Positions 26,819 to 29,038 of a stretch of 35,258 nucleotides of DNA are shown here, one piece after another (position 1 is the first letter of the stretch; each line of letters starts with the position of its first letter). The DNA comes from a virus (lineage: Duplodnaviria > Heunggongvirae > Uroviricota > Caudoviricetes). The stretch lies in IMG/VR virus record IMGVR_UViG_3300045988_142641; one strand, given 5' to 3'. The position numbers and the translations under genes were made by a program. A model generated the notes under the pieces. It worked only from the letters and a program-made list of their open reading frames with translations. It made no database searches and was not told where the DNA came from.

Positions 26819-27879
26819 AACACCACCTCCGGATGGGAAAGGTCAAATGTAATGAAGACCCGCTCTTTTCTTGGCCGAGAAGACTCTCCCAGAATAATAA
26901 CACATGAATCAGGCAAAATATTATATTGCTTTGCAGCTATATTATTCACATACACCTCACCACTTAAACTCGATATATAAAACTCTGAACCAGTATATTT
27001 CACCTCAATAGTCCCGACCCCTGAATTATTAAAAGCCGCAGATTTATTTGTTGAAGAAATGATGACGGGAGGAGTGTTATCAGAGATTAACAATGCTCTA
27101 TGAGAGTTGTAGAGAACGAATTTTTTTAGAGTCTGACACACATCAGCCATATCAGGTCTCTCACAAGGATTCGTATCTAAACATTGGAAAAGCAATTCTT
27201 TTACCTGAGTTGGTAACTGTATATTAGAATTATCAAAAGGATTAGACAATAATTTTTTTGGTAAAACTCTCATTTCCGGTGGTAGTGGGGTCTTAGCCAA
27301 AAACATGGCCGTTACAGCAAAAGCATATGTATCTATGGATTTTGTAAACGCTACTTGATGTAAAAATAATTCAGGTGCAGCATATGTTGGGGTTCCTTTA
27401 AAACCTATTGTATTAGCTTCATCAACATTTCTAGATAGTCCGAAGTCATAAATTTTCACTACTCCCTCAGAATCAATTTTCATGTTCCCAGGCTTGATAT
27501 CCCTATGAATAATATCATGAGAATGTATCTCAGAAATACCCGAAGATATTTGCCACAAAATTTTAATCAGATCTTCAGAATTTAATATGCGATCCTCTAT
27601 TTCCAATAATGAAGGTCCGTCAACATACTCTTCGACTATAGCAATTCCTTTACCTTGATAATTAATAACATCATAAAGCTCTACTACATGTTTTGATCTT
27701 AATTTCATCAATGCTGATAACTCATCCATCATTCGAGGAGAATCATCAGGATTACTTATGGACTTTATAGCGACAAATCTTTCGAGGTGAGTATCCAAGC
27801 ATTTGATCACGCAACCAAATCCTCCCGAAGCCTCTTCTTCAGTCCTCTTATATCTTGCAGGGAGAGTAAAATTAGTCAT
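26815..27879 (-). CDS. Hanks-type Ser/Thr protein kinase (354 aa), cargo
   Basis: G-loop GGFGCV, VAIK, HRDIKPGN, DFG, APE; SD AAGGAG 6 nt upstream; 8-nt overlap with the phosphatase stop; ~100-aa non-kinase C-terminal domain. Confidence 0.85.
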   Translation of the reverse strand: MTNFTLPARYKRTEEEASGGFGCVIKCLDTHLERFVAIKSISNPDDSPRMMDELSALMKLRSKHVVELYDVINYQGKGIAIVEEYVDGPSLLEIEDRILNSEDLIKILWQISSGISEIHSHDIIHRDIKPGNMKIDSEGVVKIYDFGLSRNVDEANTIGFKGTPTYAAPELFLHQVAFTKSIDTYAFAVTAMFLAKTPLPPEMRVLPKKLLSNPFDNSNIQLPTQVKELLFQCLDTNPCERPDMADVCQTLKKFVLYNSHRALLISDNTPPVIISSTNKSAAFNNSGVGTIEVKYTGSEFYISSLSGEVYVNNIAAKQYNILPDSCVIILGESSRPRKERVFITFDLSHPEVVL

Positions 27880-29038
27880 CTTTATCTCCTTTAGTGGAGT
27901 TTTTCTCAGAGAATGAAATATCTAACTGTGAAATATTATCTAACTTATCATTATTGTTAGCTTCGATAACATTCCTTCCCTCATCACTCTTTATATTACT
28001 ATTTTTTTTCTTTGTACGTGATTTCCTTTTCGATACATTTTTTTTGTTAGAAATTTCATTACTGCATTCTAACTCAGTAACCTTTCCATCAATAACATTT
28101 TCAACCGTAGCTGAGTTAGGTATATCTAACGGCGCAGGTTGCACGCTAATTACTTTCATCTCACCAAAAGGATCCCATAAATTAATTACATCCCCAGATG
28201 ATACATCCAAAGCACTTAGGATGTTCGAAATCTCAACTACCGCAATCGACGCATTATCAAATCCACCAAACCAACTAGCTAGATCTATAACTCTTTTAGC
28301 GAACACTCCAGTATTATTGGAGTGAGCATATAATTTTCTCAAATTATTACTGTCAATGGTATGAGCACCATCTGAAGTTAATGCAACCACCCCAGGTACG
28401 AGCCGAATATCGTGAAAATGTATCTCAAGAACACCATCAAGACCTATAAACTGTACTAACTCGCCACCTAATCTAGAATCAATAACACCTGAGTCACTAC
28501 CAAGATGCTCATTATATTTCTTTGCCAATACAGCTAATGTATCATCCTCACTAATTTGTTTTATGTGTTCAGCATTAATGGAATATATGCGACTATCCCC
28601 GACATTTATTGCTGTAATGTTATCGGAGTCATCTACAGCTAAGGCAGATAACGTAGCCCCACCGTTCCCATTATATACTTTCAAAACCGATTCATTTGCT
28701 TTTAAAACGGCGATTTCAAGACATTGTCTAATTGGCAAGCCTGAGTGTTTAATTATCTCGGTAAAAAAAGATGATACGGTCAATGAAGCAGCATTAGCTC
28801 CCCCTTCCATCCCCCCCATACCATCTGCTAAAGCGATGACAATCATGTCCTTATTCTTACTAAAAGGACGAAATTTTAATACAGCTACCCGGTCTTGGTT
28901 CTCTTTCCTAACTAAACCTATGTCTGTAGCAATAGCTGCAGGTAGCATAGATACTCTTCGTACAGATGAAGAGATATTTTTTCTATGCAGCCAAGCGTGT
29001 ATCTGTTCATGAAGGATCTCGTAAGAGTCTCGACTCAC
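27872..29038 (-). CDS. PP2C-family Ser/Thr phosphatase (388 aa) with Lys/Asn-rich C-terminal tail, cargo
   Basis: PP2C signature residues ENQDR, ALADGMGG, GATLSA, NVGDSR and TSDGAHT; GTG start with SD GAGGAGG; C-terminal ~90 aa is low complexity (KRKSRTKKKNSN...). Confidence 0.8.
   Translation of the reverse strand: MSRDSYEILHEQIHAWLHRKNISSSVRRVSMLPAAIATDIGLVRKENQDRVAVLKFRPFSKNKDMIVIALADGMGGMEGGANAASLTVSSFFTEIIKHSGLPIRQCLEIAVLKANESVLKVYNGNGGATLSALAVDDSDNITAINVGDSRIYSINAEHIKQISEDDTLAVLAKKYNEHLGSDSGVIDSRLGGELVQFIGLDGVLEIHFHDIRLVPGVVALTSDGAHTIDSNNLRKLYAHSNNTGVFAKRVIDLASWFGGFDNASIAVVEISNILSALDVSSGDVINLWDPFGEMKVISVQPAPLDIPNSATVENVIDGKVTELECSNEISNKKNVSKRKSRTKKKNSNIKSDEGRNVIEANNNDKLDNISQLDISFSEKNSTKGDKDD

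Follow-up and report, generated by a model that had tools for sequence, protein, structure and literature searches.

The stretch of DNA analysed here, 35,258 nucleotides of a virus assigned to the Caudoviricetes (IMG/VR record IMGVR_UViG_3300045988_142641) and called the window below, encodes the PP2C phosphatase PfpC, the last residues of which (301–388) form an intrinsically disordered tail with a fixed architecture. A linker is followed by a Lys/Arg cluster, by the short linear motif Q-L-x-I-x-F and by a coding end that contains the translation signals of the next gene, pfkB. The original prediction, made from the sequence of the window without database searches, had described a Lys/Asn-rich, low-complexity tail on a PP2C phosphatase. 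The parts of this tail that proved to be constrained are two small elements, the basic cluster and the Q-L-x-I-x-F motif, neither of which had been singled out; the motif is contained, as QLDISF, in the sequence that had been quoted. PfpC belongs to the three-gene operon pfpC-pfkB-pfkA. Judged from its sequence, this operon is the kinase-kinase-phosphatase (KKP) module, a recently published phosphorylation-based toxin/antitoxin system with anti-phage function (Guo et al., 2024, PMC11341870). In the literature searched, no description was found of conserved elements within the PfpC tail, that is, of its fixed architecture, of the Q-L-x-I-x-F motif or of the overlap with the pfkB signals.

Architecture of the PfpC tail

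The C-terminus of the open reading frame (ORF) of pfpC (Table 1) was exactly the one that had been quoted, and the span reported for the tail (27875–28140) corresponds to residues 301–388 of PfpC (27875–28138, minus strand). The identity of the tailed protein as a PP2C was also borne out. PfpC matched Pfam PF13672 (PP2C_2) with 26.7 bits against a cut-off of 24 and the NCBIfam model of Stp1-type PP2Cs with an E-value of 1.5e-29, and in a sequence search of the PDB its residues 34–269 matched tPphA, MspP and Stp1. AlphaFold2, run with a 108-sequence alignment, gave a confident model for residues 1–300, where the predicted local distance difference test score (pLDDT), averaged over 10-residue blocks, was 76–98 and mostly above 88. 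Foldseek comparison of the PfpC model with the solved PP2Cs tPphA, MspP, PstP and Stp1 resulted in template modelling (TM) scores of 0.75–0.84. The solved bacterial PP2Cs that match the model are 220–257 aa long and the alignments span approximately 250–265 columns, about the length of the catalytic core, thus the claimed contrast with compact bacterial PP2Cs held. These compact enzymes (tPphA, MspP, the catalytic domain of PstP and Stp1) have the catalytic fold and the metal-binding motifs in common with PfpC, but, unlike PfpC, they end shortly after the GGxDN strand and have no WDPFGE hairpin, disordered tail or motif. In the 108-sequence alignment, three residues of the hairpin (W288, D289 and G292) show a conservation of 90% or more. 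Disorder prediction, which had been suggested as a check, agreed with the proposed nature of the tail, since the pLDDT of residues 301–388 was 44–59 and no secondary structure was predicted.

The tail is enriched in Lys, Asn, Ser, Asp and Glu. Both Lys and Asn make up 14.8% of its residues, compared with 4.7% and 6.0%, respectively, in the folded core. Basic and acidic residues are equally frequent (K+R 18%, D+E 18%) and the overall net charge is zero. The charges are clustered: the maximum net charge is +9 per 15-residue window, a value that was reached in none of 200 composition-preserving shuffles. The description of the tail as charged and Lys/Asn-rich was thereby upheld, but the term low complexity is hardly appropriate for a region in which a linker, a basic cluster and a motif can be told apart. 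The DNA encoding the tail has a GC content of 31.4%, and 43% of the corresponding mRNA is A. No tandem repeats were detected in this DNA, and a repeat or slippage origin of the tail was therefore rejected. Similarly, promoter-like sites were not enriched in the region (13 versus 13.3 expected) and no Rfam match was obtained in the tail region; an internal promoter or RNA element was likewise rejected. The opposite strand carries an antisense ORF here (27894–28325, plus strand, 143 aa), the product of which is rich in Phe and Leu, mirroring the Lys/Asn/Glu-rich coding strand.

The statistics of the tail were derived from 170 non-redundant KKP PfpC tails, collected as homologues and as loci from genomes, viral contigs and metagenomes. 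The 120 best database homologues show 33–99% identity and, except for one 214-aa fragment, are 337–426 aa long; all of them extend past the catalytic domain. The length of the 170 tails is 49–136 aa with a median of 78. The comparison of homologues, which had also been suggested as a check, showed that close and distant homologues alike have a tail whenever they precede the two kinases.

The linker columns (residues 301–330) are the least conserved ones in PfpC, with a majority-residue fraction of 0.15–0.18, and the spacer from the WDPFGE hairpin to the terminal motif varies between 49 and 129 aa among homologues. The higher the GC content of the gene at a locus, the smaller is the part of the tail made up of amino acids with AT-rich codons (rho −0.86) and the larger that made up of Gly, Ala, Arg and Pro (rho +0.83); homologues from GC-rich hosts have Ala/Pro/Gly/Arg tails, while the dependence of the Lys+Arg fraction is weak (rho −0.33). 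As the composition of the linker tracks the GC content, the Lys/Asn richness of the tail is largely the result of AT drift: where the linker sequence is unconstrained, AT-rich codons bring these residues with them.

The basic cluster is a family-wide property: the mean of the maximum net charge is 7.3 per 15 residues in the 170 tails versus 4.9 in their shuffled versions, although the clustering is individually significant in only 76 of them. The cluster is located at a median distance of 35 residues from the C-terminus. The last part of the following spacer segment, NDKLDNIS, is conserved only within the enterobacterial clade.

In the tail peptide of the window PfpC (NDKLDNISQLDISFSEKN) the hydrophobic residues of the motif are L372, I374 and F376, and the consensus of the family is [P/S]-Q-L-x-I-x-F. 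F376 is conserved in at least 90% of the 108 aligned sequences, on a par with the residues of the catalytic site. The strict motif was identified in 98 of the 120 best homologues, and it occurs within the last 30 residues of 117 of the 170 tails, compared with 0.0 expected from the shuffles. A relaxed motif anchored by Gln was found in 135 tails (0.8 expected) and the alternating hydrophobic triplet in 162 (16.3 expected). Among the 98 strict motifs, Gln1 is present in 98, Leu2 in 81 and Phe6 in 96, and position 4 is occupied by Ile (81) or Met (17), never by Leu or Val. In distant clades the last residue of the motif is aliphatic (QLDIEI, QLRIEL, QLTIEV, ELDIEV), and some enterobacterial PfpC tails read LDIPF or LDMPF. 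The residues after the motif are rich in Gly, Asp, Glu and Lys across the family.

The C-terminal tip of SSB is DDDIPF, and the PfpC tail resembles it in having a long disordered linker and an acidic segment with Ile-x-Phe. Unlike in the SSB tip, the Phe of the PfpC motif is never the C-terminal residue, being followed by 1–13 residues (median 10), and roughly half of the family has a non-acidic residue (Lys, Asn, Gln or Arg) at position 3. Mimicry of the SSB tip was rejected on these grounds.

The KKP operon and its kinases

The genes pfpC, pfkB and pfkA are adjacent and co-oriented on the minus strand. The start of pfkB overlaps the stop of pfpC by 8 nt (ATGACTAA), and the start of pfkA overlaps the stop of pfkB by 4 nt (ATGA). 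The Shine–Dalgarno sequence of pfkB, AAAGGAGAT in the mRNA, is formed by codons K383-G384-D385 of pfpC (27884–27892, minus strand), and AGGAG is separated by a 6-nt spacer from the pfkB ATG (27877–27879), which overlaps the last two pfpC codons. Hence, the last 6–8 codons of pfpC double as the ribosome-binding site and start of pfkB, and this arrangement recurs inside the end of pfpC in most of the related loci (loci L004–L127). Since these codons form the pfkB signals, the charged end of the tail is partly shaped by translational coupling, and a C-terminal deletion made within the operon would also alter the translation of PfkB. Translational coupling also puts the nascent tail next to the nascent PfkB.

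In the published system, PfpC is the PP2C phosphatase antitoxin, and PfkB (an FHA kinase) and PfkA (a cold-shock kinase) together constitute the toxin (PMC11341870). The KKP modules of Guo et al. (Pf6 of P. aeruginosa and KKP_EC039 of E. coli) agree with the window in gene order and in the three domain types, and the portal–gpA location in a P2 prophage is likewise shared with the window module. The KKP system is already known, and the allele of the window is itself catalogued through a module with 99% identity, that of E. coli E1167 (IMG genome 2534682162). This strain is listed as a KKP host in Supplementary Data 2 of PMC11341870, and a viral contig from this strain (L081) encodes a PfpC that is 99% identical to that of the window. 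KKP modules were reported from more than 1000 prophages, among them P2, P4, Mu-like and Pf ones, while toxicity, neutralisation and defence were shown for the Pf6, Shewanella, Vibrio, S. Typhi and E. coli 15EC039 modules only (PMC11341870). The experimentally tested PfpC_EC039 is a 66% identical homologue of the window PfpC and its tail ends with ...SQLDMSFLERNSIKGDGDDE; the primers used for cloning the 15EC039 PfpC match locus L084 and not the window. PADLOC contains no model for PfpC, and the two kinases match only its generic defence-kinase models (mad6, PD-T4-6).

The translations of the two kinase genes contain the kinase motifs HRDIKP/DFG and HRDLKP/DFG. The C-terminal domain of PfkB is FHA-like: almost all of its top Foldseek matches are FHA domains (Pml1, Rv0020c, Rad53 FHA1, Ki67, RNF8, EmbR), with TM scores of 0.5–0.63, a probability of approximately 1 and E-values of only 2e-3 or weaker. 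The Pfam FHA model PF00498 did not match the C-terminal 101 aa of PfkB even at E-values up to 10, and none of the 120 homologues has a precomputed PF00498 match. The canonical Gly-Arg and Ser-x-x-His signature of FHA domains was not seen in the consensus and invariant columns of PfkB, in which no systematic search for it was made. As modelled, this domain may be a divergent FHA that is independent of phosphorylation. The C-terminal piece of PfkA gave weak matches to the Pfam CSD (E-value 0.0034, 17.7 bits, below the cut-off of 27) and S1-like (E-value 0.006) models, and some PfkA homologues carry PF00313 or PF14444. The GFI motif (KYGFIRV, residues 306–308) lies at 25895–25903; the GFI motif of PfkA was reported to be required for toxicity (PMC11341870).

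Genes were regarded as PfpC-type at an E-value below 1e-25. Wherever the sequence downstream of such a gene was long enough, pfkB and pfkA came next and the gene product had the tail. The only tail-less close relatives are two chromosomal Shewanella genes (L001, 5947–6900, S. marinintestina; L002, 5977–6885, S. schlegeliana), the products of which are 36–39% identical and end right after the hairpin, which is kept. There is no kinase gene within 6 kb of them, and their neighbours are housekeeping genes, among them transporter (MFS/HlyD, symporter) and DsbA-type ones. The two phosphatases may be antitoxins that were domesticated or orphaned. About 60 generic PP2Cs recovered by the same scans have neither the PfpC tail nor the motif, and most of them end a few residues past the GGxDN strand, while a few carry unrelated extensions.

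Table 1. Positions of the KKP genes, protein domains and PfpC tail segments in the window
Feature	Position	Strand	Basis or remark
pfpC, PP2C phosphatase, KKP antitoxin, 388 aa	27872..29038	-	GTG start; stop 27872-27874
PfpC folded part, residues 1-300: N-terminal helix, PP2C core, extra helix 270-278, beta-hairpin	28139..29038	-	AlphaFold2
PfpC conserved beta-hairpin WDPFGE, residues 284-297	28148..28189	-	AlphaFold2 and alignment
Tail segment 1, residues 301-331, variable acidic/polar linker PAPLDIPNSATVENVIDGKVTELECSNEISN	28046..28138	-	Alignment and pLDDT ~50
Tail segment 2, residues 332-350, basic cluster KKNVSKRKSRTKKKNSNIK	27989..28045	-	+9 in 15 aa
Tail segment 3, residues 351-370, spacer	27929..27988	-	Homologue C-termini; pLDDT 44-49
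Tail segment 4, residues 371-376, short linear motif QLDISF	27911..27928	-	Sequence
Tail segment 5, residues 377-388 SEKNSTKGDKDD, coding end carrying pfkB translation signals	27875..27910	-	Sequence
pfkB, Ser/Thr kinase, 354 aa	26815..27879	-	Pfam Pkinase (PF00069), E 1.7e-42
PfkB FHA-like C-terminal domain, residues 253-354	26818..27123	-	AlphaFold2, pLDDT 93.4
pfkA, Ser/Thr kinase, 355 aa	25751..26818	-	Pfam Pkinase (PF00069), E 5.9e-45
PfkA cold-shock/OB-like C-terminal domain, residues 290-355	25754..25951	-	Weak CSD/S1-like matches

Prophage setting and other features of the window

The KKP genes form a low-GC island (37.5% GC versus 51.5% elsewhere in the window), which is bordered, in a P2-type prophage, by the portal gene of the P2 family on one side and by the gene of the replication endonuclease (gpA) on the other. 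In an E. coli chromosome carrying 99.7% identical KKP DNA (RefSeq), cox, a repressor-type helix-turn-helix gene and an integrase gene are located further on. The island was present with at least 99% identity in 14 of 5426 complete E. coli genomes, and the identical 388-aa protein is annotated by RefSeq in 14 E. coli genomes. The phage collection contained only three distant PfpC-like genes.

A second low-GC island (35–40% GC) lies at 7000–11100 of the window, between the P2-type tail-sheath (5568–6758) and tail-fibre (11710–13755) genes, the position of the other known accessory/defence hotspot of P2. It contains three ORFs (7286–8155, plus strand, 289 aa; 8646–9785, minus strand, 379 aa; 10112–11056, plus strand, 314 aa), for which neither Pfam nor PADLOC matches were obtained, and which may be defence genes not yet characterised. 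The 3′ part of the small RNA CyaR/RyeE (Rfam RF00112, 66.8 bits) was detected at the very edge of the window (1–51, plus strand), thus the prophage adjoins cyaR. An integrase gene (34111–35124) is found at the opposite end of the window, and it is followed by yegR in the E. coli chromosome carrying the 99.7% identical KKP island.

Possible roles of the tail

The interpretation of the tail as a disordered regulatory or tethering region was partly supported. Tethering of the phosphatase to a kinase or to a phage component appears to be the most plausible putative function, and we tentatively propose that the tail is a flexible tether, the motif of which would dock by beta-strand addition, with the kinases of the same module as the most likely partners. 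The alternating hydrophobic residues and the beta-branched Ile (strictly Ile or Met at position 4) suggest that the motif would bind its partner as an added beta-strand. On a flexible arm of approximately 70 residues, the motif, aided by the basic cluster, would dock the phosphatase onto the FHA-like domain of PfkB, the cold-shock-like domain of PfkA or a kinase lobe. At native expression, this would hold the antitoxin at a high local concentration beside the toxin, and the exposed tail would also be the protease-accessible part of the labile antitoxin. The tail would be dispensable when PfpC is overexpressed, and would matter for tight control and triggering at native dosage. Docking onto the kinases would explain why the tail occurs together with them, why it is dispensable on overexpression, where local concentration no longer matters, and why it lies beside nascent PfkB in the coupled translation of the two genes.

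Type II antitoxins such as Phd, CcdA and RelB possess disordered C-terminal toxin-binding regions. PfpC resembles these antitoxins in being labile, encoded upstream of the toxin and translationally coupled to it, and in having an unstructured C-terminal arm, the contact of which with the toxin is proposed here for PfpC by comparison with the type II arms. Unlike the type II antitoxins, PfpC has no DNA-binding N-terminal domain and neutralises the toxin by dephosphorylation, and its arm was not required in the published assay.

Some specific forms of tail binding were discarded. A phospho-Thr docking site for the FHA-like domain was rejected as a general mechanism because there is no conserved Thr in the motif or in the basic cluster. 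Autoinhibitory folding of the motif back onto the PP2C domain was not supported by the AlphaFold2 model of the PfpC monomer, which places the motif nowhere, although the pLDDT rises slightly at the motif, to 59. Membrane binding, raised in the original prediction, found no support either, the Q-L-x-I-x-F motif being flanked by acidic residues.

In the KKP papers the C-terminal region of PfpC is labelled as a domain of unknown function (PMC11341870). Several observations weigh against docking onto the kinases. Deletion of the C-terminal domain of the Pseudomonas PfpC left neutralisation unaffected, unlike mutations of the catalytic residues (PMC11341870, Supplementary Figure 5b), which means that docking is not essential for antitoxin activity, at least at the high dosage of this overexpression assay, in which defence and regulation were not scored. 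A harmless deletion together with the absence or variability of the tail in close homologues had been named as findings that would contradict a role of the tail; the former was thus observed in Pseudomonas under overexpression, but the tail is kept in the homologues. A tail deletion made within the operon can remove the ribosome-binding site and the start codon of pfkB, and the unaffected neutralisation could therefore partly reflect lower toxin synthesis, a possible confounder. Furthermore, the published trigger T4 Gp59, which binds and partly inhibits the phosphatase of E. coli 15EC039, was modelled on the phosphatase domain and not on the tail (PMC11341870). That tail and kinases are lost together is seen in one lineage, represented by the two Shewanella genomes, and a divergent kinase-linked PfpC (L017) has no recognisable motif. 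Finally, when the last residue of the motif (Phe or aliphatic) was compared with the alignment columns of PfpC, PfkB and PfkA, the Phe class proved to be monophyletic on the PfkA tree, consequently the covariation of the motif with the kinases cannot be separated from descent. The sole column in the three proteins that tracks the Phe/aliphatic difference perfectly, and is subject to the same confounding by phylogeny, is I343 of PfkB (approximately 26851–26853, minus strand), located in the last beta-strand of the FHA-like domain; as a contact site it is a lead, not evidence.

Alternatively, the disordered tail could serve mainly as a degradation handle, an initiation site or degron for Lon or Clp with the motif or the basic cluster as the signal, so that the toxin would be freed once PfpC synthesis stops or a phage factor speeds up proteolysis. 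We regard this as unlikely to be the principal role. Antitoxins of toxin/antitoxin systems are typically protease-labile, the PfpC tail is predicted to be unstructured, and such a handle would be compatible with a tail that is dispensable for neutralisation. Purified Pseudomonas PfpC, whose C-terminal region is likewise predicted to be disordered and is protease-labile, appeared as a full-length band and a stable fragment lacking approximately 44 C-terminal residues predicted to be disordered; PfpC was degraded in lysates, and faster in the presence of the Pf4 protein RepG4, which binds and inhibits PfpC and triggers its proteolysis (PMC12328805). However, an initiation site would not require six residues to stay almost invariant, with Ile strictly kept among them, or a basic cluster to be conserved at a set distance, and the clipped fragment is stable, so the removal of the tail is not in itself degradation. 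A role in degradation can coexist with docking rather than replace it.

The Lys/Arg cluster might also anchor the protein by binding DNA or RNA non-specifically, as had been suggested for the tail originally, which would bring the phosphatase to the single-stranded DNA, RNA or nucleoid where the PfkA cold-shock domain and substrates of the nucleoid (such as MvaU/H-NS) are also located. That the cluster is kept although its sequence drifts, with a Lys+Arg content only weakly dependent on GC while the remaining composition follows it closely, would fit such an anchor, as would the nucleic-acid-binding-type domain of PfkA with its toxicity-related GFI motif. Nevertheless, nucleic-acid binding leaves the terminal motif unexplained, and the zero net charge of the window tail and the limited number of tails with individually significant clustering also argue against it. 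We consider it distinctly unlikely as the main function.

A quite improbable alternative is a tether to the replisome, in which Q-L-x-I-x-F would be a binding motif for the beta-sliding clamp (DnaN) and the basic cluster would contact DNA. Clamp-binding motifs usually lie in disordered termini, and so does the PfpC motif. It fits the QLxLxL hexamer and QLxLF pentamer consensus at Gln1, Leu2 and the hydrophobic positions 4 and 6 (quoted in PMC4564189), and Gln1 persists in the distant clades (QLDIEI, QLRIEL, QLTIEV). The known triggers of KKP are replication proteins, T4 Gp59 (PMC11341870) and RepG4 (PMC12328805), and the reported targets of the kinases include PolA, TopA and DnaG (PMC11341870). 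On the other hand, the motif differs from the clamp-binding ones in having Ile or Met, and never Leu among the 98 strict motifs, at position 4, where the consensus has Leu, and in co-occurring with kinases rather than with replication functions. A six-residue match is of low specificity, and DnaN, the sliding clamp and SSB were not found in the text covered of the supplementary files of the KKP paper, which included a part of its phosphoproteome sheet. Moreover, in the orphan homologues the tail is lost along with the kinases, which does not follow from a host-directed motif. If this reading were true, binding to the clamp or to a fork protein would station the antitoxin phosphatase on replicating DNA, and KKP would be a replication-fork guard tripped by the arriving replication proteins of phages (T4 Gp59, Pf RepG).

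That the tail has no function of its own and is a neutral, composition-driven spacer retained for the pfkB coupling signals in its 3′ end is hardly credible: although the linker is unconstrained and follows genomic GC, the last codons hold the pfkB Shine–Dalgarno sequence and start, and deletion had no neutralisation phenotype (PMC11341870), the coupling signals need approximately 20 nt and not 150–400 nt, the motif, which lies upstream of the Shine–Dalgarno sequence, is kept as a protein sequence while its codons and neighbours vary (117 versus 0 expected), and tails are retained in all 170 kinase-linked homologues.

The tentatively favoured docking of PfpC onto its own kinases touches upon two questions of KKP biology on which the architecture of the tail bears, namely how the phosphatase stays near the kinases and how phage proteins tip the balance of the system. 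The fixed architecture, the motif and the translation signals that the end of the tail shares with the toxin gene make this so-called domain of unknown function experimentally approachable.

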